Positions 4,731 through 57,744 of a stretch of DNA of 64,000 nt are shown one piece after another. The position numbers and the translations under genes are program-made. This DNA comes from an uncultured Ignavibacteria bacterium (GTDB taxonomy: Bacteria; Bacteroidota; Ignavibacteria; UBA10030; UBA6906), in assembly GCA_963780165.1 (NCBI GenBank), contig CAWABB010000001.1, forward strand, positions 2,219,591 through 2,283,590. The letters are read 5' to 3'. Under the pieces are notes generated by a model that saw only the letters and a program-made list of their open reading frames with translations, was not told where the DNA came from and searched no databases. Numbering within the stretch: the stretch's first letter is position 1; each line of letters starts with the position of its first letter.

Positions 4731-5711
4731 ATGACCCTCGAGCGCCACATTCTGGAGGGCGGCCGCATGCACCCTCATGCGACAGGGCAATTCTCCGGGC
4801 TGCTGCACGACCTCTCCCTCGCGGCGAAGCTTGTGTGGCGCGAAGTGACCAAGGCCGGCCTGGTGAACATCCTGGGGGCGACGGACCGCATGAACATCAG
4901 CGGCGACATCGTCAAGAAGCTGGACGAGTTCGCCGACCAGACGATCTTCCGGATGATGGACCACGGCGGCCACCTGTGTGTCATGGCCTCCGAGGAGAAC
5001 GAGGACCTGCTGCACATCCCTGAGGATTATCCGCACGGCAAATACGTGCTTCTGTACGATCCGCTGGACGGGTCAGGGAACATCGACGCGAATGTGACGA
5101 TCGGATCGATCTTCTCGATCTATCAGCGCACCTCGATCTCAGGCAAGGGGACGATGGAAGATGTGCTGCAGCCGGGGGTCCGACAGGTGGGGGCGGGATA
5201 TGTGCTGTTCGGGTCGAGCATGATGTTTGTCTATTCGACCGGTCACGGCGTGCACGGGTTCACGCTCGATCCAAGCGTGGGCGAATTCCTCCTGTCGCAC
5301 GAGAACATCAGAATTCCGAAACGCGGGAGCATTTACAGCGCGAACGAGGGGAACTTCAACCGCTGGAGCCCGGCGGTGCAACGGTACGTTCGGCACCTGA
5401 AAGAGGAATCCGCCGCTGACGGGCGCCCGTACTCGCAACGGTACGTCGGGTCGCTGGTGGCCGACATTCACCGGACGCTGCTGTACGGCGGAATCTATTT
5501 CTATCCCGGGGACACGAAGAACCCTGACGGAAAGCTGCGGCTTGTGTACGAATGCAATCCGCTGTCGTATCTCGTTGAGCAGGCCGGAGGGGCGGCCTCG
5601 GATGGGCGGGTCAGGATCATGGAGAAGACGCCGCTCACGCTGCATGAGCGCACGCCGATATTCATCGGGAGCACTGAGGATGTGGAGGGGGCGGTGACGT
5701 TTCTCGCGTGA
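4731..5711 (+). CDS. fbp: Fructose-1,6-bisphosphatase class 1
   Basis: MTLERHILEG…ATGQFSGLL…LYDPLDGSGNIDANVTIGSIFSIY… aligns with the E. coli Fbp N-terminus and metal-binding loop. Start chosen by that alignment (internal Met of ORF 4671). Confidence 0.88.
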   Translation: MTLERHILEGGRMHPHATGQFSGLLHDLSLAAKLVWREVTKAGLVNILGATDRMNISGDIVKKLDEFADQTIFRMMDHGGHLCVMASEENEDLLHIPEDYPHGKYVLLYDPLDGSGNIDANVTIGSIFSIYQRTSISGKGTMEDVLQPGVRQVGAGYVLFGSSMMFVYSTGHGVHGFTLDPSVGEFLLSHENIRIPKRGSIYSANEGNFNRWSPAVQRYVRHLKEESAADGRPYSQRYVGSLVADIHRTLLYGGIYFYPGDTKNPDGKLRLVYECNPLSYLVEQAGGAASDGRVRIMEKTPLTLHERTPIFIGSTEDVEGAVTFLA

Positions 5712-5810
5712 GCGGGTGAGAACCATGAGCCGGGTGCGCACCACCGGGCCCGAAGGGCAATCAGGTCAGGACGTCACCAGGCGAATGTGCGGGCAGGCAC
5801 GAGAGGTGTG

Positions 5811-5860
5811 GCACACACACAACACCCCCGTCGGCATTCCGGCGGGGGTGTTGTGTGTGC
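5811..5860. terminator. Intergenic GC-rich stem-loop between convergent fbp and cpoB-like genes
   Basis: GCACACACACAACACCCCCG–12 nt loop–CGGGGGTGTTGTGTGTGC forms a nearly perfect ~18-bp inverted repeat. There is no U-tract. Confidence 0.45.
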
Positions 5861-5875
5861 GGCGGCACGCGAAGG

Positions 5876-6606
5876 TCAGTACAGGCGCGACAGTTTCGCC
5901 TGGGCCTTCGGCACGAGCGGGCTGGTGGGATACGACGACACAACCGCGTTGAACGCGTCGCGAGCGGCGTCGCGGTTGCCGAGCGCCAGCTGTGAGTTGC
6001 CGATCATGTACTGGGCATACGGCTTCTTCCCTGACGACGCGTACTCCAGCACGCGGCCGAACTGGCGCGTCGCTTCGCTGTAGTTTTTCAACGCGTAGTA
6101 CGATTCGCCAATCCAGTACGTGCAGTTGTCCGCGAGCTCCGTCCGGGGATTCGCCTGCAGGATGGCCTCGAATTGCTGGATGGCTGGCTGATAATTCCGC
6201 TTCATGTATTGATCCAGCGCTTCCGCGTAGGCCGCCTTGAGGTCGGACGATGGGTTGACATACGCGGCTGCAGGCGTCGCGGGCGCAGGACCCTGTCCCG
6301 CGCGCAGCTTCGTTTCGAGCTCGGCGATCCGTCCGCGCATGGTCCTGTTCTCAACCGTCAGTGCATCCACCTGTCCCTGGAGCATCAGGTTCGCCTTCAT
6401 CAGGCTGTCGGCTCTGGAAGACAGGGCGGCAGTGGAGGGGTCGGCCGTCGTCGGAGGGAGCACCGGCGCGGGAGACATCACGGGCGCGTCTGATGGCGGC
6501 GGTGTGGAGGTCGTCTCCCACTCCTCGTCTTCGAAGGCCTCTTCCGTCGGTCCGCATCCGGTCACGCAGACTGCTGCGCCGAGCAGCAAGACCGCGGCCA
6601 GCATCG
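5876..6606 (-). CDS. CpoB/YbgF-like lipoprotein (coiled-coil + C-terminal TPR, Tol-Pal-associated)
   Basis: Signal MLAAVLLLGAAVCVTGC (lipobox). C-terminal …YWIGESYYALKNYSEATRQFGRVLEYASSGKKPYAQYMIGNSQLALGNRDAARDAFNAVVSSYPTSPLVPKAQAKL matches the CpoB TPR domain. Start taken at the internal Met of ORF 5876..6760. Confidence 0.6.
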
Positions 6607-22334: not shown

Positions 22335-23786
22335 ATGAGGCATCTCCGACACATTCTCGTTGTGTTTCTGGCGTTCTGTGTCGGACACGGGCGCGCGCAG
22401 TATGCGCTACAGGATGCATTCCCCGCACTTCCTGCGTTCTCTCTCCCCGTTGAGCTCGTCGGTGCCGGGGACGGCGCCGACCGGCTGTTCGTGGTCGAAC
22501 AGCGAGGCCGCATCTATGTCTTCGACAACACCGCATCTGTTACCACCCGCCGGTTGTTTTTGAATCTGAGCGATGTCGTCTCCGCGAGCGGCGGTGAGAC
22601 CGGTCTGCTCGGTCTTGCATTTCATCCCTCGCATGCGTCCAACGGCTCTTTTTATGTGTACTACACCAGCTCGCGCTCGGGGTCGCTGAAGAGTTACGTC
22701 TCACGATTCAGCGTGAGTGCGACAGATCCGGATTCCGCGGTCACGTCGAGTGAGGTCATTCTCCTCACGGCGGACCAGCCGTTTGAAAACCACAACGGCG
22801 GGAAGATCGGGTTCGGTCCGGACGGATATATGTACGTGTCTCTCGGCGACGGCGGTTCCGGGAACGACCCGCTGAACAACGGGCAATCACTCACCACGCT
22901 GCTTGGCAAGATTCTCCGGATCGATGTTGATGCGCAGGAGCGCCCGCTTTCCTACGGCATTCCCTCCACCAACCCGTTCGCAGGCAATACGCAGGGGTTC
23001 CGTCGGGAGATCTACGCGTACGGACTGAGAAACCCGTGGAAGTTCAGCTTTGATTCCGAGACCGGGACGCTCTGGGCCGGGGACGTGGGGCAGGGCGCGC
23101 GCGAGGAGATTGACACAATCGTGCCCGGAGGCAACTACGGCTGGCGGCTTATGGAGGGGATGATCTGCACGCCGGGCGTGAACCCGACATGCCAGGACAC
23201 GGCAGGGCTCCTGCGGCCTGTGTGGGATTACAATCGCTCTGCCGGCGACGCCTCAGTAACGGGAGGCTCTGTGTATCGCGGGGCTGCCATGTCGGAGCTC
23301 ACAGGCAAATATGTGTATGGCGACTTCGCCAGCGGGCGCATCTGGGCGCTGACCTCGGACGGCGTCAACCCTGCGACGAACGAGCTGCTGCTTGACACGC
23401 CTCATCAGATCTCGACGTTCGGCATCGACCGACAGAAGGAAATGTATGTCGTGGCATACGGCTCCGGGAAGATCTACCGCCTGACCGGGCCGGCCACATC
23501 GGTCGAGCCCCGGGCTGTGCCGGCGGCGTACGGACTCGAACAGAACTATCCGAATCCATTCAATCCGTCAACGCAGATCGAATACCGGATTGCAGAATCC
23601 GGGCCCGTGCGATTGAGCGTACACGATCTGCTCGGACGGGAGGTGGCACTGTTGGTGGACCAGGCGAAGCCGGCGGGGAGTTACAGGGTGAGGTTGGAGG
23701 CACACGACCTCCCCAGCGGGGTGTACGTATGCCGCCTGACTTCTGGGAAGTTCGTGGAGGCCCGCAGGATGCTCCTTCTGAAGTAG
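22335..23786 (+). CDS. PQQ-dependent soluble sugar (glucose/sorbosone) dehydrogenase with T9SS C-terminal sorting domain
   Basis: …GLAFHP…NHNGG…GDGGSGNDP…LRNPWKFSFD… are GSDH β-propeller motifs. C-terminus …NYPNPFNPSTQIEY…VYVCRLTSGKFVEARRMLLLK. Confidence 0.8.
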   Translation: MRHLRHILVVFLAFCVGHGRAQYALQDAFPALPAFSLPVELVGAGDGADRLFVVEQRGRIYVFDNTASVTTRRLFLNLSDVVSASGGETGLLGLAFHPSHASNGSFYVYYTSSRSGSLKSYVSRFSVSATDPDSAVTSSEVILLTADQPFENHNGGKIGFGPDGYMYVSLGDGGSGNDPLNNGQSLTTLLGKILRIDVDAQERPLSYGIPSTNPFAGNTQGFRREIYAYGLRNPWKFSFDSETGTLWAGDVGQGAREEIDTIVPGGNYGWRLMEGMICTPGVNPTCQDTAGLLRPVWDYNRSAGDASVTGGSVYRGAAMSELTGKYVYGDFASGRIWALTSDGVNPATNELLLDTPHQISTFGIDRQKEMYVVAYGSGKIYRLTGPATSVEPRAVPAAYGLEQNYPNPFNPSTQIEYRIAESGPVRLSVHDLLGREVALLVDQAKPAGSYRVRLEAHDLPSGVYVCRLTSGKFVEARRMLLLK

Positions 23787-23983: not shown

Positions 23984-25321
23984 ATGAGATACGCATTGTT
24001 GTTTCTTGCCGGCGCGGTGGCGGTTGCCTCGGCACCCGATGCCACCGTGGCCGGTGGAGCCTCCCGCTCCCGCACCCTGGCTATGATCGACTCCGTGTCG
24101 CTGGTCCGCATGAGCGCCGACATCCGATGGCTCGAAGCGCCGGGGGGACACAACAGCCGCGTGACGCTTACGCCGGGGAACGACAGTGCAGTCGCCTACA
24201 TCTATCGTGCCTTCCTCGCAATCCCCGGCCTCACGTCGGTCAGGCTTGACACGTTCTTCATCGACGCCGATCCTCCATACACGGCACGGCCCCACGTCAA
24301 TGTCGTGGCGACGCTTGCGGGCAACACAGATCCGGCACGAAGTATCGTCATCGGTGGCCACTATGACGCCTCGGCCAGCCGCGTTCAGGGCATGTCCTGG
24401 AATTCACTCTGGAGCACGATTCGTGCACCGGGGGCGGACGACAACGCGTCCGGGATTGCCGCCATCCTTGAGGCGTCCCGGCTGATGAGCGATCCCGCGT
24501 TCGGGATTGCCAACGACTACACGATCACGTTCGTGGCGTTCGGGTCCGAGGAATCCGGGCCGGTCCACCGCGGCGGGCACGGCGGGAGCAAGCACTTTGC
24601 CGCTCAGGCACGCGCCCGCAACGACCAGATCCTGGGCATGATATCGGTCGACATGATAGCGCACAACAGGGTCTTCAGCACGACCGATGTCGTCTCCAAC
24701 GCCGCATCCCAGTGGCTCGGGCAGGCCTTCGTGGACGCAAGGGATTCTCTCGCGATCCCGCTGATCACGAACCCCTCACCGTTTGCATACGGCACATACA
24801 GCGATCACGCTTCGTTCTGGGACGAAGGATACGATGCAATCCTGTTGATCGAGCATGCACCGCCATGGAACAGCACGGATCAATACATTGCCAACCCGTA
24901 CTATCACACGCCCGCCGACACGATCGAGACGCTGAACTATTCCCTGCTGAAGAGAGCGACGCAGGTCCTGACCGGAACTCTTGTATCTCTCTCTACGGTG
25001 CCGACTGGAGTTGCCGGCGAGCGGACTCCTGCGGTCGCGCAGCTCGAGCAGAACTATCCGAACCCGTTTAATCCCGTAACGCGCATCCGGTATGCGGTTG
25101 CCGGAGATCGTGGGAGCGAGTCAGGCGGCCACGTGCGTCAGACCACCCTTGCAGTTTATGATCTGCTCGGGAGGGAGGTCGCGGTGCTGCTGGACGAGAA
25201 GAAGCCGGCGGGGACCTATGAAGTGATTTTTGACGGGGGGGATCTCCCGAGCGGCGTGTATGTGTACCGGTTGACTTCCGGGACGCTTGTCGAAACGCGT
25301 CGGATGCTGCTGCTGAAGTAG
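23984..25321 (+). CDS. M28-family aminopeptidase with T9SS C-terminal domain
   Basis: …GGHYDASA…GADDNASGIAAILEASR…GSEESG… are M28 metal ligands. C-terminus NYPNPFNPVTRIRY…VYVYRLTSGTLVETRRMLLLK. Confidence 0.8.
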   Translation: MRYALLFLAGAVAVASAPDATVAGGASRSRTLAMIDSVSLVRMSADIRWLEAPGGHNSRVTLTPGNDSAVAYIYRAFLAIPGLTSVRLDTFFIDADPPYTARPHVNVVATLAGNTDPARSIVIGGHYDASASRVQGMSWNSLWSTIRAPGADDNASGIAAILEASRLMSDPAFGIANDYTITFVAFGSEESGPVHRGGHGGSKHFAAQARARNDQILGMISVDMIAHNRVFSTTDVVSNAASQWLGQAFVDARDSLAIPLITNPSPFAYGTYSDHASFWDEGYDAILLIEHAPPWNSTDQYIANPYYHTPADTIETLNYSLLKRATQVLTGTLVSLSTVPTGVAGERTPAVAQLEQNYPNPFNPVTRIRYAVAGDRGSESGGHVRQTTLAVYDLLGREVAVLLDEKKPAGTYEVIFDGGDLPSGVYVYRLTSGTLVETRRMLLLK

Positions 25322-33247: not shown

Positions 33248-33736
33248 TTACTTCTTCTTCTTGTCGAACTTCGCCATGACCTCCTCAGCGGCCTTCGCGT
33301 GGCTGGTGATGACGTCGCTCGCGCCCTTCATCGCGGCAGCGAGCTGGGTCTGTGTTCCCATCAGCCCTTCCATGTCCTTGTTAAGCTGTGCCATGACCTG
33401 CTCGTGCGGGAGGCCCTCGTCATACGGCTTGTACGCTTTCATCCAGCCGTCCATGGCCGATTTCGCGCCGGCGATCTGCTCTTTCGCGGCGGCAATATCA
33501 TCGGCCGAATGGCCCTCGAGGGCCTTCGGAAACTTCGCCGCGAGCTCTGTGTGCTTTGCCATGGCTGCATCCAGCGCCGCCGTCAGGCTGTCGAGCACCT
33601 TCATCGACGCCATCTGCGTCTCGTGGGCCTTCTGGACCTCAGCGTTCAGGTCCGCTTCGAGCTTCTTCATGTCCGCCGACTTTCCGCACCCGACAAGCGC
33701 GGCGGCGACAACCAGTAATAGCCAACGGGATTTCAT
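33248..33736 (-). CDS. Hypothetical helical lipoprotein
   Basis: MKSRWLLLVVAAALVGCG (lipobox). Ala/Lys-rich helical; ends KKKK. Confidence 0.6.
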   Translation of the reverse strand: MKSRWLLLVVAAALVGCGKSADMKKLEADLNAEVQKAHETQMASMKVLDSLTAALDAAMAKHTELAAKFPKALEGHSADDIAAAKEQIAGAKSAMDGWMKAYKPYDEGLPHEQVMAQLNKDMEGLMGTQTQLAAAMKGASDVITSHAKAAEEVMAKFDKKKK

Positions 33737-33920
33737 GATCCCTCCTATGTGTGAACATCACTCGTGGGACTACGTCCGTGAATATACCAGAAATCCGAAC
33801 CGAATGAAAGGCCAGCCATGCAGCCCACATTGGGCGATTTCCTTACATCCACGTGCAATTTCCCGGCATTGAAGTTGCTGAGACTTGGAGCACTGTACCA
33901 CACCTCTCCAGGAAGCACGC

Positions 33921-35645
33921 ATGGATCGGCACAAAGTCCTCGCTCTCGTCACGGGTCGGGCGGATCAAGAAGTGGAAGTCGCGGGTGCAGCTGCGGTCCC
34001 GGACGCTGCGAACAAGACGCTCCCGAAGGTTCTTCGGACGACGGCGGGTGTTGAGCCGTACGCGGGACCCTGGGGACCTCTGCAGATCGGGCACCTCCTC
34101 CGGCGCACCACATTTGGAGCGTCGCGAGCAGACCGCGAGAATCTAACCGCGTTGTCGATCGACCAGGCCATTGACCGCGTCCTTGACGATGCGGTGCCCG
34201 ACACAACCCTTCCGCTCAACGCTGACACCCGGGACCTGGTCCCGGTTGGAGTCACGTGGGTCAATGCGATTGCCAGGGATCCTGCGTCGACGTTCAGCCC
34301 AACCGGTGTGCGGATGAACTCGTTGCGCTCCTGGTGGATGCAGCGGATGATTCAGCAACAGGCATCGGTCCGGGAGAAGATGGTCCTCTTCTGGCACAGC
34401 CATTTCGTCACGGAAATACCGGATGTTGGCGACCCGAGATTCTCATACCGCTATGTTGACCTGATCCGCCGGAATGCCCTCGGCAATTTTCGTGCGTTCG
34501 CCCGCGACATGACGTTCGAAGGAGCGATGTTGCTCTACCTGAACGGCAACACCAACACGCGCACCAACCCGAACGAGAACTATGCCCGTGAGCTGCAGGA
34601 GCTATTCACGATCGGGAAGGGGCCGGAGGTCGCGCCCGGAGATTACACCAACTACACAGAGGTCGACGTCAGGGCGGCGGCGCGTGTGCTGACCGGCTGG
34701 AGGACGCAGACGAATACCGACGGGACGGTGGGCGCGGTGACCTGGAGGTTCGACTCGACACGACACGATCCCACCGACAAGCAGTTCTCCCATCGATACC
34801 AGGACCGGGTCGTCACCGGCCGGAGCGGCGAGGCGGGGGCGCAAGAGTTGGACGACCTGATCGCGATGATCTTCGATCAGCCTGAGACGGCCCGCTACCT
34901 GTGCCGGAAGCTGTACCGCTGGTTCGTGTACTACGTGATCGACGACCAGGTGGAAGACACGGTCATCGCTCCGATGGCGGACCTGCTCCGAGCCTCACAC
35001 TACGAAGTGAAGCCGGTGCTGCGCCTCCTCTTCCGTAGCGCGCACTTCTTCGATCCCGTGAACACGGGATGTGTCATCAAGAGTCCGCTGGATCTGACTG
35101 TGGGGATGGTGCGGGAGTTCGAGATGGCGATCCCCGCCGCCGATCTGGCGCAGGAATACACGTTCCTCCTCTACCTCGTCAATCAGGCATCAGCGATGCA
35201 GCAGTCTCTCGGGCAGCCGCCCGATGTGGCCGGGTGGTCCGCGTACTATCAGTCGCCCCAGTACTATGAACTGTGGATCAACTCTGACACGCTGCCGCGG
35301 AGGACGAGGCTGAGCAACACGTTCGCGCGCACAGGGTATACGACGGGAGGGTCCACACTCATCATCGATCCGCTCGCGTTTGCGGCGGGGCTGACCATGC
35401 CGGAGGAGCCGGATCGCCTGATCGATGAGCTGTGCGAGTATCTGTATGCGCTTCCGCTCACGGCGGGACAGAGAGCATTCCTGAAGAACACGCTGATCCC
35501 CGGGCTGCCGGATTACGAATGGACGGTAGAGTGGATGGACTACGTCAACGACCCGACGAACCCGCTGAAGGCCACGCCGGTCAAGACCAAGCTGCAGACA
35601 TTGCTCTCGACAATGATGCAGATGCCCGAATATCAGTTGCACTGA
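33921..35645 (+). CDS. DUF1800-family protein
   Basis: …IGHLLRRTTFGAS…WHSHFVT…NENYARELQELFTIGKG… is characteristic of DUF1800. Paired with the downstream DUF1501 gene. Start uncertain (ORF 33885). Confidence 0.65.
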   Translation: MDRHKVLALVTGRADQEVEVAGAAAVPDAANKTLPKVLRTTAGVEPYAGPWGPLQIGHLLRRTTFGASRADRENLTALSIDQAIDRVLDDAVPDTTLPLNADTRDLVPVGVTWVNAIARDPASTFSPTGVRMNSLRSWWMQRMIQQQASVREKMVLFWHSHFVTEIPDVGDPRFSYRYVDLIRRNALGNFRAFARDMTFEGAMLLYLNGNTNTRTNPNENYARELQELFTIGKGPEVAPGDYTNYTEVDVRAAARVLTGWRTQTNTDGTVGAVTWRFDSTRHDPTDKQFSHRYQDRVVTGRSGEAGAQELDDLIAMIFDQPETARYLCRKLYRWFVYYVIDDQVEDTVIAPMADLLRASHYEVKPVLRLLFRSAHFFDPVNTGCVIKSPLDLTVGMVREFEMAIPAADLAQEYTFLLYLVNQASAMQQSLGQPPDVAGWSAYYQSPQYYELWINSDTLPRRTRLSNTFARTGYTTGGSTLIIDPLAFAAGLTMPEEPDRLIDELCEYLYALPLTAGQRAFLKNTLIPGLPDYEWTVEWMDYVNDPTNPLKATPVKTKLQTLLSTMMQMPEYQLH

Positions 35646-35656
35646 GGACGTTTCGT

Positions 35657-37234
35657 ATGGATCGAAGAGGATTTCTTGCCCGTGCAGTGCCGGTAACGAC
35701 AATCCCGTTCCTGGTCGGCGGGTTCAGGCTGCGCGCCTATGCACGGGGACCCCTGCTGAAGGCTCTGTCGGCCTCGTCCGTCGAGGACCGGGTCCTCGTG
35801 ATCGTTCAGATGAACGGCGGGAACGACGGCTTGAACACTGTCATACCGCTGGATCAGTACTCAGCGTTGAGTGCGGTCCGGGGGAACATCCTGATCCGGG
35901 AGGACAAGGTGCTTCGGTTGTCGAGCGCAACCGGGCTGCACCCGGCGATGTCCGGCATGCACCGGCTGTACGGTGACGGAAAGCTCGGGATCGTCCAGGG
36001 GGTGGGGTATCCGAGCCCGAATTTCTCGCACTTCCGTGCAACGGACATCTGGCTCACGGCGGCGGATTCCGGGCAGGTGCTGTCGACGGGATGGATGGGA
36101 CGATACGTCTCTGAGGAATACCCCGGCTATCCCGCCGCCTATCCGACCACCGGAATGCCCGACCCGCCCGCGATACAGATCGGCTCCGTTGTGTCGCCAG
36201 GGCTTGTCGGCCATGATGGCCCTGGCGGAATTGCTGTCTCAAACACAAGTTCGACATTCACGCTTCCGGGCGGGTTCGACATCCCGCCTGATTCACCGGC
36301 CGGCCACGAGCTTACGTATATCAGGACGGTAGCGGAGCAGACGGAGCAGTATTCGGCGGTGATACGATCCGCCGCCGGGCGTGCGCGTAATCTCTCGGCC
36401 CTCTATCCCAACCCCGGCCGGAACCCGCTGGCCGATCAGCTCAAGATCGTGGCGCAGCTGGTTGCCGGCGGATTGAAGACACGAATCTTTGTCGTGAACA
36501 TAGGGGGGTTCGACACACATTCGGGGCAGGTCGCGTCGGGCGCGACAGAGACGGGGGCGCATGCCACGCTCCTGGACCGGCTGTCGGTTGCCATCACAGC
36601 GTTCATGGACGACCTGCGTTTGCTCGGCATCGATCATCGGGTGGTGGGGATGACATTCTCGGAGTTCGGGCGGCGCATCACATCAAACGCGAGCCTGGGC
36701 ACCGATCACGGCACATCGGCGCCGATGTTCCTCTTCGGCACGCCCGTGAGTCCACGGATCTTCGGATCGAACCCGGAGATTCCCCCAACGGCGACGAGCA
36801 GGGACAACCTTGGGATGCAGCACGACTTCCGTTCGGTCTACGCGTCGATTCTGAAGGACTGGCTCGGGGCCTCAAGCGCTGAAACGGAGTCTGTGCTGTT
36901 GAAGAACGACCTCGCGACGCTGCCGCTGATCGACTACGCTGCCCGCGCATCGGGGATGGACGTGGTTCCGGCATCATACGCCCTGATGCAGAATTATCCC
37001 AATCCGTTCAATCCGCTCACGACGATCGTGTACGAGCTTCCGGAGCCTGCGCACGTGCGGATTGCGGTATACGACAGTGCGGGCGAGGAGGTGGCTGTAC
37101 TTGTGGATGGCGGGATAGCGGCGGGGAGGAAGTCCGTGGACTTCAACGGGTTCAATCTGGCGAGCGGCGTGTACTTCTACCGCATGACAGCGGGGAGCTT
37201 CAGCGAATCGAAGAGGATGGTGCTGGTTCGGTAA
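35657..37234 (+). CDS. DUF1501-family protein with twin-arginine signal and T9SS C-terminal domain
   Basis: MDRRGFLARAV (RRxFL). …VIVQMNGGNDGLNTV…FDTH…GTDHG… is the DUF1501 core. C-terminus …NYPNPFNPLTTIVY…VYFYRMTAGSFSESKRMVLVR. Confidence 0.7.
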   Translation: MDRRGFLARAVPVTTIPFLVGGFRLRAYARGPLLKALSASSVEDRVLVIVQMNGGNDGLNTVIPLDQYSALSAVRGNILIREDKVLRLSSATGLHPAMSGMHRLYGDGKLGIVQGVGYPSPNFSHFRATDIWLTAADSGQVLSTGWMGRYVSEEYPGYPAAYPTTGMPDPPAIQIGSVVSPGLVGHDGPGGIAVSNTSSTFTLPGGFDIPPDSPAGHELTYIRTVAEQTEQYSAVIRSAAGRARNLSALYPNPGRNPLADQLKIVAQLVAGGLKTRIFVVNIGGFDTHSGQVASGATETGAHATLLDRLSVAITAFMDDLRLLGIDHRVVGMTFSEFGRRITSNASLGTDHGTSAPMFLFGTPVSPRIFGSNPEIPPTATSRDNLGMQHDFRSVYASILKDWLGASSAETESVLLKNDLATLPLIDYAARASGMDVVPASYALMQNYPNPFNPLTTIVYELPEPAHVRIAVYDSAGEEVAVLVDGGIAAGRKSVDFNGFNLASGVYFYRMTAGSFSESKRMVLVR

Positions 37235-37327
37235 GCGCGTGCAGGCCAACACGCTCATCGCCCATCCGCGCGAGGGAACGGCAGGTGATGAGGTCCCCGC
37301 GTTGGACGTGAGTGGTTCTCCGGATCT

Positions 37328-38617
37328 CTAGACGCCTCCCGGCGGCGAGACCAGGATGGTTCCCCCTTCACCCACCGCGACGTACTGGAAGTCGTGCCAG
37401 ATGACGTCCCGGAGCCGTTGCGGCACCTGCGTGGTGGTGCGGTTCCAGGTGCGGCCATCCTGTGAGGTGAGAATATTCCACCCGACCGTGACGAGCGGCC
37501 CCTCGCCGGACGCGACGCCATATTGCGTGGTCGCATCCAGGGTGTAGCGCTGCCAGTCCGTCCCATTGCCGGAGACGAATGACACGCCCCCCGTGCCTGC
37601 CGTGATAAATGCGCTGCCCGCCCATGTGATGTCGAAAATACTGTAGTCCGTTCCTGGCAGCGTGACCGGCACCCAGGTGAGCCCGTCCGGCGAGGTCAGA
37701 ACGATCACGTCCGCCGGGAAGCTCTCCTGCATAGCAGCTGCGACGAACCGGGTCCCCGACCACACAACCGACTGCAGGCTCCGGTACTGCAGCGAGGGAC
37801 CGCGCTCGGTCCACGCGAGGCCATCCGGGGACGTGAGAATCACCGTGGTATCAGTGCTCCCGCCAGGCAGCATGGGGGAGCTGCCCACGGCAACAATCAA
37901 TCCTCCTCCCGCGGTCACGCCGTAAAGGGCGCCCTCCGCCCGAGGCGCGCTGGCGGGCGTCCACGATATCCCGTCCGGCGACACAAGAATCGCTATGTTA
38001 TCGCCCACGGCGATAAACTGCTGTCCGGACCAGGCGATCGCCCGCAGGTGTGCGCCGATTCCGGAGGCCCTGGGTGCCCATGCCCGACCGTCAGGGGACG
38101 TCACGATTGTCCCGCCTGTTCCGACCGCGACAATCATCGACTCACTGGCTGCAACACCGAGGAGTCCAGCGGTGGTACCAGAGGGGCGGTATCCCCATGA
38201 GGCTCCGGACCGGTCGCGCGCGACGCGGAAGATCTTCGACGTCGGATTGGATCGGTTTCCTTTGCTGTCGATCAGCGTGACGGTCACGTTGAACGATCCC
38301 ACGGCGCCTGTTGCCACGCGGAGTTCTCCGATCAACGTGCCGGCCGTCATGCCTGCTGCACTGGTGGCCGCGATGGTATCTGAGCCGCCCGGCGTAATGG
38401 ACAGGAGGAGTGTCGCGAGGTCGCCGTCGATATCCGAGAACGTGACTGATCCGCGCACGGTCACAATATCCCCCCATGGATAGTAGGCCGCAGAATCCGG
38501 GGAAAACGTAAAGTTCGTGATCACGGGAGCGTTGCCGCGAGAGCTGTCGGGCCCTGTGCTGTCATCGCATCCGGCAACCACAACGGCCATCAGAAGGAGG
38601 GAAGCGAATGATCTCAT
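37328..38617 (-). CDS. β-propeller lipoprotein with BNR/Ycf48-like SxDGxxW repeats
   Basis: MRSFASLLLMAVVVAGC (lipobox). Repeats I[VL]TSPDG[RLI][AST]W…. Confidence 0.6.
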   Translation of the reverse strand: MRSFASLLLMAVVVAGCDDSTGPDSSRGNAPVITNFTFSPDSAAYYPWGDIVTVRGSVTFSDIDGDLATLLLSITPGGSDTIAATSAAGMTAGTLIGELRVATGAVGSFNVTVTLIDSKGNRSNPTSKIFRVARDRSGASWGYRPSGTTAGLLGVAASESMIVAVGTGGTIVTSPDGRAWAPRASGIGAHLRAIAWSGQQFIAVGDNIAILVSPDGISWTPASAPRAEGALYGVTAGGGLIVAVGSSPMLPGGSTDTTVILTSPDGLAWTERGPSLQYRSLQSVVWSGTRFVAAAMQESFPADVIVLTSPDGLTWVPVTLPGTDYSIFDITWAGSAFITAGTGGVSFVSGNGTDWQRYTLDATTQYGVASGEGPLVTVGWNILTSQDGRTWNRTTTQVPQRLRDVIWHDFQYVAVGEGGTILVSPPGGV

Positions 38618-39006
38618 CGAGGTATGACCTGTAAGGCAGAGCGCGGGTACACGGGATATTCCATGCGCAAATGTAGGGATTTCGGAAGGGAAAGTCGAGG
38701 CAGCCAGCCCGTTGCAACTGTCACTGCGCCGCGTGCCTGCACGGCCCGGACCTGGAAACACCCGGCAGAAGGATCTCGCACGCCTCTCAGTTTCACCTCA
38801 GCCGGTTCACATCGGCTGGCGATCAACGGAACGGAACTTGCATTTGTTGATCTCGGCGAAGTACATTGCTATCAGAGACTCCATCGCGCCCGAGGCCCCG
38901 CATACACGGGCCGCCGCTCCTGACCCCGATCCGGATCCCTCCGCTCTCGAGCCCGCCCCGACGACCCATAGGCGCCTGCACTGTTGTGAAACAGTCAAGG
39001 GAGGCA

Positions 39007-39777: not shown

Positions 39778-40035
39778 CGGTGGCCGCAGCGTACATTCTG
39801 GCGACACACCGTTTGGCGCCTGACGGTTTCCCCGGCCGGATGGCCGCCGAAGCTGGACCCTGATCCAGTACCTCTGTCGTAGAGCCCACCTCCGACGACC
39901 ACCGGTTGTACATGTGGATGAAGAACGTCCCTGGGGGGACATACGAGCGAACAGGCGCGATTGACGACTCGGCAACGAACCGACGTCTGCACACATCGAC
40001 CTCCTCGGTCCGGTGTGCGCATTAAGGTGGGAACA

Positions 40036-42243
40036 ATGAAAGGACATCTCCTCTGCCTCGTGGTTGCCGGCGTGCTGCTCCGCGCTGTTGCCTCCGGTCA
40101 ATGGGTACAAACCAGCGGACCCTCGGGCGCGTTCGTCCAGGCGCTCGCCATCAACGGCACGGACCTCTATGCGGGGACGTACCGCGGAGGCGTCTTTCTT
40201 TCCACCAACAACGGGGAGAGCTGGACCGCGGTCAACCGGGGACTGTCCGACAGAGATGTAAATTGTCTGGCCGTCCGTGGCGAGAATCTCTTTGCCGGCA
40301 CCAATAGTGGCATCTTCCTCTCCACCAACAGCGGAGCAATCTGGAATCCCGTCAATGCGGGAATGTCCAATGCGATCGTGAACTGTCTTGCCTTCAGCGG
40401 GTCGGATGTCTTTGCCGGGACGTGGAACAACGGCGTCTTCCGTTCGACGGATGACGGTGCGCACTGGACAAAGGTGGCGAACGGCCTGACGAACATGGAC
40501 GTCCAGGCGCTCGCCGTTGTGGATACGATGCTTCTTGCCGGCACAAACAACGGTGTGTTCGTGTCCTCCAACAACGGTGCCGACTGGACGGAGGTCAACG
40601 ATGGCCTTGCGAGCAAGGTCGTCAAATGCCTCACTGCCAGCCGTGCCGGTGACGGGACGGGTGGGACCCATCTCTTCGTCGGGACGCGAGGTGGCGTCTT
40701 CCTCTCAACGGACAACGGCGCACACTGGGCCCCGGCCAGCGAAGGACTTAAGCACAGGGATGTCCAGTGTCTGGCCGTTGTCCCTGACGATAGCGGGGCC
40801 GGTGGCACGAGGCTCCTTGCCGGGACCCTGGGTGGACTCTTTGTTTCTGGCGATGACGGTGGTGGTTGGACTGAAGTCGCTTCGAGTCTCGTGAATGCGG
40901 ATGTCTATTCCATCGTGTCAAATGGCGTGAACCTGTTCGTGGGCACGTCCAGCGGGGTGTTTCTCTCGACTGATGGAGCGATGAATTGGGATCCGGCGAA
41001 TGCCGGCTTGACGGGGACAAGCGTGCTCTGTTTTGCCGTGAGTGGTACGGAACTGTTTGCGGGAACGATGTACGGCGGCGTGTTCTCTTCCACCAACAGC
41101 GGGATGACCTGGATCGGCGGCTGGGTGGACATGAGAAACACATCGGTTGTGTCGCTCGCGGTGAGTCCTGCCGGTGGAGCGGCAGGCGGGATAGACCTTC
41201 TTGCTGGAACCTCAAGCGCAGGCGTCTTCCTTTCCGCGGATAGCGGGCGAACCTGGAAGACCGTTAACGCAGGTCTGACGAATATCCGGATACTGTCGCT
41301 CGTCGTGAGCCCCGGCGGTGGCGGGACGGGCGGGACAAAGCTCTTTGCCGGCATCGCCGACAATGGAGTGTTTGTCTCGTCTGACCATGGCGCACACTGG
41401 GTTGCTTCGAATGAAGGTTTTCCCCTGGATCAGTACGGCCGATATCCCAGTGTCACATGCCTGGCCGCATCGGGGACGACTCTCTTTGCAGGCACCAAGG
41501 GTTCCGGAGTCTTTGTATCCACCGACAGGGGCACAACCTGGAGCCAGCCGGGTTCGGGTCCGTATCCATACATCCTGTCGCTAGCGGTCAGCGGCTCGAA
41601 TCTCTACGCCGGCACAAGCGGCGCCCGCGTGTTTGTGTCCACAGACAAGGGCGCAAGTTGGCGCTCGGTCAGCAGCGGACTCACCGAATTCGTAATCAGG
41701 TCGCTCGTTGTGAGCGGGACGAGCCTCTTTGCGGGCACAACGGGGGGAATCTTCGTGACCAGCAACAAGGGGGCGAGCTGGACGAGAGTCAATGAGGGTC
41801 TCGCGAATGTGAATATCCTGTCGCTCGCGGTCATAGGGGTAGATCTCTTCGCGGGAACGTTCGGCGCCGGTGTGTGGCAGCGGACTCTCTCGGAAATGGT
41901 CACCTCGGCGCAGCCTTCTGAAGACCGGCTCCCCGATGCATTTGAGTTATTCCAGAACTACCCGAATCCCTTCAACCCGAGCACGACGATCGAGTACGCG
42001 CTGCCGGAGCGTTCGTACGTGACGCTGACCGTCTTCGACGCACTCGGACAGTGCGTTGTGACGCTTGTTCAGGATGAGAAGGAGGCCGGATATCATCGGG
42101 CCATCTTTGATGCCGCCGGACTCGCCAGCGGTGTCTACCTGTACCGGTTACAGGTCCGCACCAGGGACGCTGCAACCGGCCGCGAATCCGGGGGCGGACC
42201 TAGAGAGTCCGTGCGGACGCGGAAGCTCGTTTTGGTTCGATGA
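40036..42243 (+). CDS. BNR/Asp-box repeat β-propeller protein with T9SS C-terminal domain
   Basis: Signal MKGHLLCLVVAGVLLRAVASG. At least 12 tandem ~45-aa units …LFAGT..GVF.ST[ND].G..W…GL…V..LAV… each with an Asp-box S-x-D-x-G-x-[TS]-W. C-terminus NYPNPFNPSTTIEY…VYLYRLQV…. Confidence 0.8.
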   Translation: MKGHLLCLVVAGVLLRAVASGQWVQTSGPSGAFVQALAINGTDLYAGTYRGGVFLSTNNGESWTAVNRGLSDRDVNCLAVRGENLFAGTNSGIFLSTNSGAIWNPVNAGMSNAIVNCLAFSGSDVFAGTWNNGVFRSTDDGAHWTKVANGLTNMDVQALAVVDTMLLAGTNNGVFVSSNNGADWTEVNDGLASKVVKCLTASRAGDGTGGTHLFVGTRGGVFLSTDNGAHWAPASEGLKHRDVQCLAVVPDDSGAGGTRLLAGTLGGLFVSGDDGGGWTEVASSLVNADVYSIVSNGVNLFVGTSSGVFLSTDGAMNWDPANAGLTGTSVLCFAVSGTELFAGTMYGGVFSSTNSGMTWIGGWVDMRNTSVVSLAVSPAGGAAGGIDLLAGTSSAGVFLSADSGRTWKTVNAGLTNIRILSLVVSPGGGGTGGTKLFAGIADNGVFVSSDHGAHWVASNEGFPLDQYGRYPSVTCLAASGTTLFAGTKGSGVFVSTDRGTTWSQPGSGPYPYILSLAVSGSNLYAGTSGARVFVSTDKGASWRSVSSGLTEFVIRSLVVSGTSLFAGTTGGIFVTSNKGASWTRVNEGLANVNILSLAVIGVDLFAGTFGAGVWQRTLSEMVTSAQPSEDRLPDAFELFQNYPNPFNPSTTIEYALPERSYVTLTVFDALGQCVVTLVQDEKEAGYHRAIFDAAGLASGVYLYRLQVRTRDAATGRESGGGPRESVRTRKLVLVR

Positions 42244-42512: not shown

Positions 42513-44024
42513 ATGGCTACCGCGCGGCCTAGCTTGTTGCATTTCGGGGCGACACTCCTTGTGATTCTCCTGTCGTCCCCGTTTGCCTGGTCCCACAAGC
42601 AGCCGGTTCATCAATACCTTGTTCGTGAAGGGTACACCCTGCTTGTGAAGACATACGGAAACGATATCCCGCAGCTCTCGCGGTTCATAGGATCAGCGGA
42701 CCAATCCACGATCGGAGACTCCGCGTGGCAACAAGGCTATGTCACGACGGGGGCATGGCGGGAGGACGAGGAAGACGTCGTCTACCATTACGATATCCTT
42801 CCCGGCGTGAACTATGCGCTCACCAGCATTACGCATTTCTGGTCTGCCGATCGTGGCGATGGCGCCGACAATATGTTCAGACTGGTTATCGAGCAGCCGC
42901 CGTTGCCTCCGATCAACACCGATATCGGACCCTTCCCGAATGCATATGCCAGACTCAGGAGGTTTGCTGAGGGCGGGTGGGTGCTGAACTACCCCCGGCT
43001 CTTCGTCTGCCGCAACACGGCGAACAACCACTGGCTGGTCATCACTCCACTTGTTTCGGATGCCGGCTTTGGGGTTCCACTGTCGTACGACGGACTGGTC
43101 GACTTTTATTCAAGCGCAAGGCTCACGGTGCGAGCGGACCAGCCAAATGTCTGCACGGTCCTTGATGTCACAGACCTGAAGACTATCGAGCTGAGTGACC
43201 TGACGGAGATCGAGGTCGCTGACGACGTCCGGAATATCGTGGCCTGGGAAGTGCTTGGGAGGATGTGTCACTTGCTGGCCGACATGAGTGTTCCTGCTCA
43301 TGCGCATCTGGACGAGCATGGTCTGCTGGCGGATAGCTACGAAGACTATGTTGGCGGGGCTGGCGATCCCTACACAGCCTGGAGTGCTGACAATGTTGAT
43401 TCAGCGATTGTGCTGAACGGCCCGACAGACGAAGTGCTTCACACCCTGATGTACACCACACAGCAGCAGGCCGACCATTTTGGCAGCAACGGACCCGCCA
43501 ATGGGGACGGCAACGACGTCATCGGGGGAGATGCTGCGGCGGCGGAGCGGGAGATCCTGAATGCCATCGACCTGGGATCCCTCGGCGGGCCGACCACCAA
43601 TGCCGGGCCCTGGTCGTCCGGGGATCTGGACATCATCAGGGACAAAACCCTCCCGTATGCGATCAGGGCGACGGCTGGATTGCTGTACTGGTTCTCTGTT
43701 TCCACCGGACTGATGTCTCCAATCGTTTCGGTCGCGTCGGGTCAGGACCAGAATGGGCCGGCTGCGACACACCTCGCGCAGAACTACCCGAACCCATTCA
43801 ATCCGGCGACGACAATCGCATACGCGGTGCCGGAGAGATCGCACGTAACGCTCACGGTGTATAATACGCTCGGAGAGAGAGTTGAAGAACTGGTGAACTG
43901 TGAGCTGGAGGCTGGCTATCATGAGGTCCTGTTTGATGCCAGTGGCCTGGCGGGCGGAGTCTATCTGTACCGTCTGCAAGCGGGAGACGTCGTACAATCA
44001 CGGCGATTGCTGTTCCTGAAGTAG
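42513..44024 (+). CDS. Secreted zinc-dependent phospholipase C / S1-P1 nuclease-like protein with T9SS C-terminal domain
   Basis: The predicted signal peptide ends …SSPFA|WSHKQPVH, so the mature N-terminus is Trp followed by His, as in Zn-PLC/S1-P1 enzymes. Later …THFWSAD… and …PAHAHLDEHG… are His/Asp clusters. C-terminus NYPNPFNPATTIAY…VYLYRLQAGDVVQSRRLLFLK. Confidence 0.45.
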   Translation: MATARPSLLHFGATLLVILLSSPFAWSHKQPVHQYLVREGYTLLVKTYGNDIPQLSRFIGSADQSTIGDSAWQQGYVTTGAWREDEEDVVYHYDILPGVNYALTSITHFWSADRGDGADNMFRLVIEQPPLPPINTDIGPFPNAYARLRRFAEGGWVLNYPRLFVCRNTANNHWLVITPLVSDAGFGVPLSYDGLVDFYSSARLTVRADQPNVCTVLDVTDLKTIELSDLTEIEVADDVRNIVAWEVLGRMCHLLADMSVPAHAHLDEHGLLADSYEDYVGGAGDPYTAWSADNVDSAIVLNGPTDEVLHTLMYTTQQQADHFGSNGPANGDGNDVIGGDAAAAEREILNAIDLGSLGGPTTNAGPWSSGDLDIIRDKTLPYAIRATAGLLYWFSVSTGLMSPIVSVASGQDQNGPAATHLAQNYPNPFNPATTIAYAVPERSHVTLTVYNTLGERVEELVNCELEAGYHEVLFDASGLAGGVYLYRLQAGDVVQSRRLLFLK

Positions 44025-55242: not shown

Positions 55243-57744
55243 TCAACCCCTGGCTCGAAACGCCCCGAAACCGTACCCCCTCGACCGCAAGGCGCGAATC
55301 AGATCCCCGAGGCGCGCGTAGAGTTTGTCGGTCCGTCGCGGATCGGTTCCAATATGCAGAAGCAACAACGCTCCGTTCAATCCCCTGCTTGAGGATTCCT
55401 CCACTCGCATCATTCGAGCCATGATCGAGTCGCTGCTTGCGTACTGCGCGCCCATCTCCGGGTGCGTGTAGTCCGCATTCGTGTACGTGCCCGGCGTGAG
55501 GTTCACGAGGGTGACCCCTACCGAATCGCACCATCGCGCCACCTCCAAATTGTACCATTCGTACGGCGGCAGGAAATACGGAGCCCGCTCCTTCGTAAGC
55601 CCGAACGGCGTCATGGCGCTGTAGTTTGCAGCCAGGTCCGCGAGGAATTCCCCCCTGGTCACCAGCAAGGAATCGCGTCGCGACCAGTCGGCATACAATA
55701 GATGCCGATCGGAGTGGGGGCCAAGATAGTGGCCGTCTGCCGCAAGCGAGCGGATGAGCGGGGCGAAGGCGGGATTTCTGTAGAAGTCTCCGGTAAAGAA
55801 GAATGACGCACGGACGGATTCCTCCTGAAGAGTCTTCCGTATGCTCTCTCCGCCGTCGGCGTATTCGTGCCCCGAGAACATCAGGTATACCACCCTGGAA
55901 ATTGTGTCCATCCTGACAATGCCGCCCTGATCGACGCGCGACGTTTGCAGCAATCGCTGTCCGTTTCCGTCCTGTTCCAGGAGTGCGAACGGGAGCGTGA
56001 GGCTCGCAGTCCCGTCCATTGTCGGTTCGTTCGTAGAGTAGTCGCCCCAGTCGTCGTGGTAGACCGCGAGATCAGACTGGAACGCACCAAACACGTCCGG
56101 CTTGCTGAGATGGATGCCGATGAGACCGTTGAATGTCGATCCGTAGACGGGTCCGTCCACCAACCCGCCGTCGATCGGGTACCCATACACATGGGAGAGG
56201 GCCGAATGGGGATCCTTCGGGGCCGTGCCCCACGGGGGGAGTCCGACGATCATGCTGGTCCCCCATGGATTGCACCCCAGGAGCCAGTCGCGCAACGAAC
56301 CCTGCATGGCCATATACGTGGAATCGATCGAGAGTTGCCCGTACAGCATGCTTTGGGCAAGCAACGCGCTCACGAGGTTGTTCGAGCACCAGATGAACGG
56401 GACTCCGAAGAGGAACGGGTTCGCGCGACCGCGGGCATACACAGTGTCGATGCCCCGTCGGAGTGACGCGATTGTGGAATCAGTTGTGCCGGGAGCGGAT
56501 GTCCGGCTATTGGCACGAGCGCGGAGAACGCGACCGTGATTCATGAATGGATACCACTGGTAGTGCCGCGCGCGGTCGGCCCCCATCCACGGCGTGAGCG
56601 GCTCGATCGCTGCATACGTCATCGCCTTCGCCTGGTAGCTGGTATCGCCCGTGAGCTCCCAGAGGGCTGCGGCGGCGAGCTCCATGTCGTCTGCCCAGCT
56701 GTCCTCCTCGTAGAAGTACGGTGCCTTGCAGGGGGCTGTCTGGCACACGCCGGGATGCTCTTCGCCGAACGCGAAAGCTGTCACCGCGCGTTCGTGGAGG
56801 AGGCGTGCGGCATCCGGATCCGACCCGGCGAACACGAGCGCGGCGAGGGCGAATGCGGAAGCGAACTTTCCTGCAGTCGAGGCGACCCCGGTGGTGCGGT
56901 TCTTGAACTCGAAGATCCCCTGCGGCTCGCCGTTGACAAAGTACACGGGGCGTTCCCGCCCGCGGCCGTAGTCGACGGTATCCTCGGTGGGAAGGCGAAA
57001 GCCCCGATGGTCCCGGTCGTCGGCAATCTGGTTGTACATCTCGCGCGGCGCGGGGTTCATCTTCAGGAGCCACGCGATTCCCCAGCCGGCCTCGTCAAGG
57101 ATGTCGGGGACGCCGTTCGCTCCGGGTCTGCCCGACGCGTCGAATGCATCCCGAAAAACTCCGGGCGCGACCCGGTAGGCGATCAGCATCGAGACGACGG
57201 CCGTGGCCGAGGTCGTCACATACTGCAGGTAGTCCGATGCATCATGCCATCCGCCAACGACGTCGATGAACGCGGAGTCGAATCCCGGGCGGTACACGAT
57301 GTATCCGTCTCGCGTATGACAGGAGTCGTTCAGGAAGGGGTTATAGCCGCACCTCTGCTGGCGCATGTAGCGAAGCAGGAAGTCCGCCGCCCCGTCGTAC
57401 ACATGGGGCCCGATGCGAAACGAGGGCGAGACCTCCCCGCCGGCGCGGATATAGTACGCTCCGTCGCTCGTGAACCGGGAGAAGTCAAGTCGATACGATG
57501 CGCGGAACGGTCCGTACGCTCCGCACGAGGCGATGGCGGTCGATCGCCAGACCGGATCGTGCGTGAGGGCATCGTGCAGGGCAAACTCCCCGACGTGCAG
57601 CGAGGTGTCCGACGTTCCGAGCACGGCCACTTTCGTCGAGACAGGCAGATAGCCGAGTTGATTGACGCGAATCCACGTGCCGCTCTGTGCGGTGGTGACG
57701 AGTGCCAGCGTGAGAAGCGTCGCGAGGCTGTTGGCCCTGGGCAT
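55243..57744 (-). CDS. Glycoside hydrolase family 9 endoglucanase (with N-terminal Ig-like CelD_N domain) fused to a C-terminal CE4-like polysaccharide deacetylase domain
   Basis: Signal MPRANSLATLLTLALVTTAQS. Ig-like N-domain. …DVVGGWHDASDYLQYV… is the GH9 DAGD-motif region with G→S. (α/α)6 barrel body. The C-terminal ~230 aa include …HSDRHL…, an H-S-x-x-H deacetylase-type motif. Confidence 0.7.
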   Translation of the reverse strand: MPRANSLATLLTLALVTTAQSGTWIRVNQLGYLPVSTKVAVLGTSDTSLHVGEFALHDALTHDPVWRSTAIASCGAYGPFRASYRLDFSRFTSDGAYYIRAGGEVSPSFRIGPHVYDGAADFLLRYMRQQRCGYNPFLNDSCHTRDGYIVYRPGFDSAFIDVVGGWHDASDYLQYVTTSATAVVSMLIAYRVAPGVFRDAFDASGRPGANGVPDILDEAGWGIAWLLKMNPAPREMYNQIADDRDHRGFRLPTEDTVDYGRGRERPVYFVNGEPQGIFEFKNRTTGVASTAGKFASAFALAALVFAGSDPDAARLLHERAVTAFAFGEEHPGVCQTAPCKAPYFYEEDSWADDMELAAAALWELTGDTSYQAKAMTYAAIEPLTPWMGADRARHYQWYPFMNHGRVLRARANSRTSAPGTTDSTIASLRRGIDTVYARGRANPFLFGVPFIWCSNNLVSALLAQSMLYGQLSIDSTYMAMQGSLRDWLLGCNPWGTSMIVGLPPWGTAPKDPHSALSHVYGYPIDGGLVDGPVYGSTFNGLIGIHLSKPDVFGAFQSDLAVYHDDWGDYSTNEPTMDGTASLTLPFALLEQDGNGQRLLQTSRVDQGGIVRMDTISRVVYLMFSGHEYADGGESIRKTLQEESVRASFFFTGDFYRNPAFAPLIRSLAADGHYLGPHSDRHLLYADWSRRDSLLVTRGEFLADLAANYSAMTPFGLTKERAPYFLPPYEWYNLEVARWCDSVGVTLVNLTPGTYTNADYTHPEMGAQYASSDSIMARMMRVEESSSRGLNGALLLLHIGTDPRRTDKLYARLGDLIRALRSRGYGFGAFRARG

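Follow-up and report, generated by a model that had tools for sequence, protein, structure and literature searches.

A 64,000-nucleotide stretch of contig CAWABB010000001.1 (positions 2,219,591 to 2,283,590 of the forward strand; assembly GCA_963780165.1) from an uncultured Ignavibacteria bacterium, referred to here as the window, contained a DUF1501-family gene whose 525-amino-acid product carries two export signals: a predicted twin-arginine signal peptide at its N-terminus and a type-A C-terminal sorting domain (CTD) of the T9SS, the system for type IX secretion, at its other end. Both signals were present, strongly conserved and co-occurring across the family. The route that they suggest, and that we consider probable, is one in which the protein would be exported folded through Tat (twin-arginine translocation), be cleaved after AYA29, have its CTD recognized by the T9SS, cross the outer membrane and lose the CTD in the linker that precedes it. 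The product would then be a metallo-hydrolase of the DUF1501 family that is secreted or sits on the cell surface. Except for the canonical general secretory (Sec) signal, the protein fits DUF1501 and the class of T9SS cargo defined by TIGR04183 on every criterion that could be tested. An earlier reading of the window, made without database searches (the original prediction), had placed both signals on this protein and had called the combined routing uncommon.

The first residues of the protein, MDRRGFLARAV, fit the Tat consensus RRxFL and are those quoted in the original prediction. The whole N-terminus (MDRRGFLARAVPVTTIPFLVGGFRLRAYA, followed by RG after the predicted cut) combined this motif with a weakly hydrophobic h-region, a basic c-region and an AxA site. 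The n-region was MDRRGFLAR and the c-region RLRAYA; the h-region between them, AVPVTTIPFLVGGF, has 14 uncharged residues with much Pro, Thr and Gly. Set against the consensus S/T-R-R-x-F-L-K, the window protein reads D-R-R-G-F-L-A. Across 120 aligned homologs (mean column identity 63%), residues R3, R4 and F6 were invariant while the remaining signal positions varied, and RRxF[LIFV] was present in all 120. In the AlphaFold (AF2) model, the signal region had a helical N-terminus and low values of the predicted local distance difference test (pLDDT).

Tat signals are told apart from Sec signals by three published discriminators: they follow the S-R-R-x-F-L-K consensus, their h-region is less hydrophobic and their c-region carries positive charges (PMC5539426). 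The maximum Kyte-Doolittle hydrophobicity over 10 amino acids was 1.91 for the h-region of the window protein, with a median of 1.83 for the 120 homologs, and ranged from 2.76 to 3.46 in three Sec-type CTD proteins of the same window, which have short Sec-type signals. A basic residue was found in the c-region of 119 of the 120 homologs and an A-[YF]-G/A cleavage motif in most of them. The predicted signal thus reads as Tat on all three discriminators and differs from those of the four other window proteins with a CTD, which are of the Sec type, and the conservation of the arginine pair, as judged from the alignment, is far beyond chance. DUF1501 proteins of other phyla have likewise been reported to carry predicted twin-arginine motifs or to be predicted Tat substrates (PMC3542564; PMC5122149). 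No second Tat-like N-terminus was found among the open reading frames (ORFs) of the 64-kb window, and none was found in the eight other CTD-bearing ORFs of the retrieved DNA, a sample too small for a rate.

At the C-terminus, the translation runs to its end as ...NYPNPFNPLTTIVY...GVYFYRMTAGSFSESKRMVLVR and contains VYFYRMTAG...MVLVR, the segment in which the original prediction had seen a T9SS sorting domain, with the TIGR04183 model named as the way to check it. That model matched with 40 bits against a cut-off of 23 (NCBIfam), and Por_Secre_tail (PF18962) matched residues 447-522 of 525 with 32.5 bits against a cut-off of 27 (Pfam). TIGR04183 also matched all 88 homologs tested. Invariant residues in and directly before the CTD were N446, P448, N449, P450, F451, N452, T455, G476, G490, G504 and Y506. 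The CTD was modelled (AF2) as a beta-sandwich with six beta strands between residues 454 and 523 (pLDDT ~90-97), in agreement with the Ig-like beta-sandwich fold described for T9SS CTDs (PMC4804311).

Four further proteins with T9SS type-A CTDs were encoded in the window, all on the forward strand (22335-23786, 23984-25321, 39961-42243 and ~42513-44024). They comprised a GSDH-type dehydrogenase, an M28 peptidase, a BNR/sortilin-repeat protein and one protein without another Pfam match. All four had Sec-type signals, that of ~42513-44024 as judged by inspection. In the protein at 39961-42243, the CTD had an apparent insert of ~20 amino acids (…VRTRDAATGRESGGGPRESVRTRK…) ahead of the last strand. 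Because of these four proteins, use of the T9SS by the source organism is implied.

The double signal was found far beyond the window. A word-indexed search (E<=1e-5) returned 7,986 relatives as 90%-identity clusters, and nearly all of the best 120 had the precomputed architecture PF07394+PF18962. A scan of one genome per species returned at least 595 loci. Among the best 80 of these, almost all were labelled Bacteroidota, together with one Chromatiales and two Chlorobiaceae records; the taxa represented were Chitinophagaceae, Sphingobacteriales (Pedobacter, Daejeonella), Flavobacteriales, Cytophagales, Saprospiraceae and metagenome-assembled genomes (MAGs) of Ignavibacteria/Kapaibacteria type, and they included several cultured strains. 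Pedobacter lithocola CCM 8691, Daejeonella sp. H1SJ63, Longitalea luteola and Lacihabitans sp. CS3-21 are examples of cultured carriers. The closest species-representative genome among the matches listed held an ortholog 64% identical to the window protein.

The sorting domain stood at the end of 82 of 83 species orthologs. After correction of start-codon artefacts, 82 complete ortholog N-termini (42-64% identity) could be counted: 76 read RR, four read RK and two read R-x. The second arginine was replaced and the CTD kept at loci L008, L022, L041 and L056 (RK) and at loci L021 and L064 (R-x). These may be natural RK Tat signals, or their lineages may have switched to Sec.

The original prediction had also proposed a survey of DUF1501 homologs for the presence of a CTD. 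When only the catalytic domain served as query, so that the tail could not bias the outcome, an exhaustive HMMER search gave 11,162 cluster representatives (50% identity) with E<=1e-3, of which 1,579 reached E<=1e-30. With an iterated hidden Markov model (HMM), the sorting domain was found in 129 of the best 150 cluster representatives. Ten divergent tail-bearing representatives were re-checked with Pfam; nine were above the cut-off and one scored 23 bits. In total, 109 of the 150 representatives had both RR and the tail, and about 13 were short forms of roughly 400-450 amino acids that ended right after the catalytic domain and had no CTD. The co-occurrence of RR and tail across species loci and cluster representatives therefore marks it as a conserved trait of a large Bacteroidota clade and not as a feature specific to the window. 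Measured against other T9SS cargo and against the literature, the word uncommon fits the routing; the architecture itself, however, is common (at least 595 species loci).

In the proposed route, the DUF1501 protein would fold in the cytoplasm, probably gaining its metal or otherwise maturing there, and the twin-arginine signal would carry the folded protein over the inner membrane via the Tat translocase. Signal peptidase I would cut after AYA (residue 29), the T9SS would recognize the CTD in the periplasm, and the protein would pass the outer membrane. The CTD would finally be removed in the flexible linker, and the enzyme would be released or anchored on the cell surface. The linker is the likely region of CTD removal, and the cleavage would presumably be carried out by a PorU-type sortase, as in the general T9SS model (PMC4804311). 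Cargo of the T9SS is picked up in the periplasm in a folded state (PMC9251779; PMC9127263), so that delivery by Tat is mechanistically compatible with the system.

Several points weigh against this route. Secretome or localization data for family members were not found in the searched literature. Neither tatA nor tatC was found in the 64-kb window with E. coli (Escherichia coli) sequences as queries, and Pfam and NCBIfam searches of 34 window ORFs found neither T9SS core genes (SprA/Sov, PorV, PorU, GldK-N) nor Tat machinery. The Tat signal models PF10518 and TIGR01409 gave no match at E<=10 on the N-terminal 70 amino acids or on the whole protein, and TIGR01409 gave only two weak matches (best E 0.35) across 88 relatives. 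Tat signals were present in none of 102 experimentally identified T9SS cargo proteins (PMC10515386), paired arginines occur in some Sec signals too (PMC5539426), and six of the 82 complete orthologs read RK or R-x, which means that some lineages may not depend strictly on Tat. PF10518 and TIGR01409 are very short models and are affected by HMMER filters. A supporting point is that one distant relative, P0269, scored 20.4 bits with PF10518, just under its cut-off of 22.7. As the Tat profiles did not settle the question, the published Tat-versus-Sec discriminators were applied (PMC5539426).

Part of this evidence would also fit an ordinary Sec-dependent T9SS cargo that crosses the inner membrane by Sec despite its RR, the arginine pair being an inherited feature with little present role. 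Sec tolerates twin arginines, which are found in some of its signals (PMC5539426); the generic Tat HMMs were silent; the experimentally known T9SS cargo all have Sec signals (PMC10515386); and the second arginine was lost in six of 82 orthologs. We regard Sec crossing as quite unlikely nonetheless. RR-x-F was invariant in the 120 homologs while other signal positions varied, the h-region was far less hydrophobic than the Sec signals of the other window CTD proteins, and 119 of 120 c-regions held basic, Sec-avoidance residues. At 42-64% protein identity, a motif without a function would not have remained invariant.

The route might alternatively end after Tat export, with the protein periplasmic or tethered to the inner membrane and its beta-sandwich serving as a structural or binding module and not as a working T9SS signal. 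FlgD_ig matched the CTD below threshold (21 bits, cut-off 27; Pfam), which marks the domain as a generic Ig-like fold, and no T9SS machinery gene was among the 34 window ORFs scanned; the enzyme can also exist without a CTD, because about 13 of 150 representatives are short forms that lack one. Against this stand two curated T9SS type-A models that the domain passed, its position at the extreme C-terminus, T9SS signature motifs kept as invariant residues, retention of the CTD in 82 of 83 species orthologs from T9SS-bearing Bacteroidota lineages, and the four neighbouring window proteins with the same kind of tail. A periplasmic end point therefore appears very unlikely, and export by Tat followed by the T9SS is the preferred reading.

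The enzyme that would take this route was only partly covered by its family profile. The DUF1501 (PF07394) match was 53.2 bits against a cut-off of 27 and aligned profile positions 243-340 of 390 only, while in DUF1501 relatives a longer stretch of the profile was aligned (Pfam). In the AF2 model (pLDDT 83.7), the signal was disordered or helical, the alpha/beta core was confident, the linker had low confidence and the C-terminus formed the beta-sandwich. Foldseek matched the model to sulfatases, LtaS (lipoteichoic-acid synthase), PlcN (9gy2) and alkaline phosphatase with probability 1.0 and E-values down to 2e-6; a PDB sequence search with the family profile gave no match. On the basis of the model, the fold is that of the alkaline-phosphatase/sulfatase superfamily. 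The invariant residues D57, S124/H125, D286/T287/H288 and D350/H351 fall at strand ends or helix starts in the model, and the superfamily placement of metal ligands and nucleophile suggests catalytic roles for them. By analogy, the enzyme may reasonably be taken for a hydrolase or transferase that depends on metal and has a phospho- or sulfo-ester as its target. Members of the sulfatase, LtaS, PlcN and alkaline phosphatase families often need folding or metal loading before export.

Some cluster representatives (P0275, P0276, P0284, P0302, P0365, P0373, P0396 and P0406) were far longer than the 525 amino acids of the window protein, at 600-1089 amino acids. In P0365 and P0396, Pfam placed fn3/purple-acid-phosphatase-N-like, H-type lectin and FRG1-like/DUF7910 modules between the catalytic domain and the T9SS tail; these extra modules fit a surface enzyme that binds a polymeric substrate. 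A few other long DUF1501 relatives ended in dockerin-like repeats in place of the CTD.

Table 1. Features of the DUF1501 gene and its DUF1800 partner, in positions of the window.
Feature	Position	Strand	Description
DUF1800 gene	33921-35645	+	574 aa; PF08811 334 bits, residues 58-573
Intergenic spacer	35644-35656	+	11 nt; preceded by GAGGA ribosome-binding-like motif overlapping the DUF1800 stop codon
DUF1501-family gene	35657-37234	+	525 aa plus stop; Tat-type signal, alkaline-phosphatase-superfamily catalytic domain, linker, T9SS type-A CTD
Predicted twin-arginine signal peptide	35657-35743	+	Residues 1-29; predicted cleavage after A27-Y28-A29
Catalytic domain	35783-36931	+	Residues ~43-425; alkaline-phosphatase/sulfatase superfamily fold (from the model)
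Candidate metal/nucleophile residues	D57 35825-35827; S124-H125 36026-36031; D286-T287-H288 36512-36520; D350-H351 36704-36709	+	Invariant columns
Flexible linker	36932-36994	+	Residues 426-446, from enzyme domain to sorting domain; pLDDT dip, <50 at 433-435
T9SS type-A C-terminal sorting domain	36995-37231	+	Residues 447-525; motifs NYPNPFNP, GVYFYR, KRMVLVR

The ATG start at 35657 lies 11 nt after the stop of the DUF1800 gene, with GAGGA 8 nt 5' of it. The sole longer ORF, from a GTG at 35432 (600 amino acids), was rejected, and the ATG is supported, because the longer frame overlaps DUF1800 by 213 nt, the homologs all begin M-x-R-R and the public gene calls of the identical protein are also 525 amino acids long. 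A scan of 33600-37500 for promoters and terminators found nothing above background. The 11-nt spacer and the GAGGA over the DUF1800 stop codon suggest translational coupling of the pair.

The pairing of DUF1501 with DUF1800 is obligate. Of 83 orthologous loci, 80 had DUF1800 as the next gene upstream, in the same orientation and separated by a median of 16.5 nt; the three exceptions lay at contig ends. The identical 574-amino-acid DUF1800 protein is public (P0121). It had no sorting-domain match by Pfam or NCBIfam, as expected from the original prediction, in which the partner lacked such a tail. The N-terminus of the window copy (MDRHKVLALVTGRADQEVEV) contains a remnant resembling RR, with RH in this copy and RR in relatives at 92-94% identity. 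In E. coli, single replacements of the second Tat arginine, His included, block export (PMC5539426). Altogether, 90 of 118 close DUF1800 homologs begin M-[DNK]-R-R-x-x-[LF], which resembles the Tat consensus (M-x-RR-x-F/L-L). In the close homologs, the longest uncharged run after RR had a median of 8 amino acids and was followed by acidic or basic residues, and the maximum 10-amino-acid hydrophobicity before the conserved PYTGPW landmark had a median of 0.93 (118 close homologs). About half of the more distant DUF1800 partners read MDRRDFLTAKRKK... or similar. No export-competent signal was found in the window DUF1800 or in ~190 relatives. The AF2 model of DUF1800 (pLDDT 88) was all-alpha with residues 1-27 disordered, and no solved structural relative of it was found. 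Its invariant residues were H58, R61, R62, E152, H159, E219, N220, R223, E224, H282, K287, H375, D378, C384 and K387.

DUF1800 may be a hitchhiker with DUF1501 or a cytoplasmic maturase. As a maturation factor or chaperone it would not be exported, and Tat would be needed as DUF1501 would be finished and folded in the cytoplasm. This role is tentatively possible and would make DUF1800 comparable to the formylglycine-generating enzymes for sulfatases or to Tat proofreading chaperones. It agrees with the lack of an export-competent signal in the window copy and ~190 relatives, with the many invariant polar residues, typical of an enzyme, and with an obligate, tightly coupled pair in which the DUF1501 fold is sulfatase-like. 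However, it leaves unexplained the Tat-consensus peptide M-x-R-R-x-F/L-L kept in 90 of 118 close homologs, and the DUF1800 fold resembles no known maturase or Tat chaperone. In Entotheonella, DUF1800 proteins were also reported from a vesicle/envelope fraction (PMC12981691), which hints weakly at a location other than the cytoplasm.

In the other role, DUF1800 and DUF1501 would be exported as a pre-assembled folded heterodimer, DUF1800 crossing first by means of the Tat signal of DUF1501 and then, by means of the single CTD of DUF1501, through the T9SS. Such hitchhiking through Tat would explain both the use of Tat by the DUF1501 family and the RR relic in DUF1800, and we hold export of the heterodimer to be somewhat unlikely. 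If true, T9SS cargo fed by Tat and piggy-back secretion through the T9SS would each have their first example in it. Tat hitchhiking is known from the small and large subunits of hydrogenase-2 (Rodrigue et al., 1999, cited in PMC6085387), where a signal-less subunit is encoded beside a subunit with an RR signal, as in the DUF1800-DUF1501 pair. In contrast to hydrogenase-2, DUF1800 retains an RR remnant, a second step through the T9SS would follow, and the DUF1800-DUF1501 complex is putative. A hitchhiking precedent for the T9SS step was not found in the searched literature.

The order EttA-TruA-lipoprotein-DUF1800-DUF1501 was conserved. A predicted lipoprotein (33248-33736, reverse strand; 162 amino acids, LVGC lipobox) lies upstream of the pair in divergent orientation and was syntenic in related contigs. 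A second predicted lipoprotein, a beta-propeller of ~430-477 amino acids with a VAGC lipobox and a faint DUF6242/F510_1955 similarity, lies convergently downstream (37328-38761, reverse strand) and was also syntenic in related contigs. Farther along the window, a gene at 55243-57744 (reverse strand) encodes a protein in which a GH9 cellulase, including a CelD_N Ig-like domain, is fused to a polysaccharide deacetylase domain; this protein has a Sec-type signal and no CTD. When the window and 81 loci were searched for TatA and TatC (E. coli queries), the single TatA-family match was at locus L066. There, in a Candidatus Kapaibacterium sp. MAG (JANWLI010000040.1), the DUF1501-CTD ortholog has a TatA/TatB/TatE-family gene (5637-6101, reverse strand; PF02416, 53 bits) ~390 bp downstream in opposite orientation. 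This gene was the only direct hint of the machinery that the proposed route would need.

Secretion by Tat and then by the type II secretion system (T2SS) is established for PlcH, PlcN, the PhoD-like PA3910 and PA4140 of Pseudomonas aeruginosa (PMC4899797). These exoproteins and the proposed DUF1501 route have in common a folded hydrolase, two steps, an RR signal and an outer-membrane system that takes folded periplasmic cargo, and PlcN was among the structural matches of the DUF1501 model (9gy2). They differ in the outer-membrane step, which for DUF1501 would be the T9SS, addressed by a dedicated CTD, and which is proposed here from sequence. The T2SS recognizes features of folded cargo.

Canonical T9SS type-A cargo, such as gingipains and the adhesins and enzymes of Flavobacterium, shares with the DUF1501 protein the ~80-amino-acid Ig-like CTD at the extreme C-terminus behind a linker. 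In all described cargo, the signal peptides are of the Sec type (PMC9127263, PMC8047123, PMC10515386), whereas the DUF1501 family has a conserved twin-arginine signal instead; this difference has no bearing on how the CTD is recognized. DUF1800-DUF1501 pairs of Proteobacteria and the DUF1501-PSCyt/PSD modules of Planctomycetes-Verrucomicrobia have DUF1501 and the predicted Tat motif in common with the window protein (PMC5122149, PMC3542564), and the proteobacterial pairs also share its operon partner DUF1800 (PMC5122149). The DUF1501 proteins of these groups are without the T9SS tail because their phyla lack the T9SS. They are assumed to be periplasmic, whereas the Bacteroidota clade added the CTD and sometimes fn3 or lectin-like modules.

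The gene itself is not new, since the architecture PF07394+PF18962 is precomputed in public databases for thousands of proteins. What would be new is the route, a two-step secretion in which Tat feeds the T9SS and which was not found described in the searched literature. That literature held general Sec statements only and no description of a Tat-dependent T9SS cargo. T9SS cargo is described as Sec-exported (PMC9127263, PMC8047123, PMC9251779), type IX secretion is taken in reviews and prediction tools to be fed strictly by Sec, and the cargo predictor T9GPred discards proteins with Tat signals (PMC10515386). Current inventories of T9SS cargo would thus systematically miss Tat-signal proteins. 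The claim is directly testable because the family occurs in cultured, tractable genera (Pedobacter, Chitinophaga). It also offers a handle on two widespread families, DUF1501 and DUF1800: the enzyme of the pair would have an extracellular location, and it becomes a question by what path the partner without a signal would travel. Overall, a large and conserved family with both RR and tail implies that the T9SS, like the T2SS, would also take folded cargo delivered by Tat.

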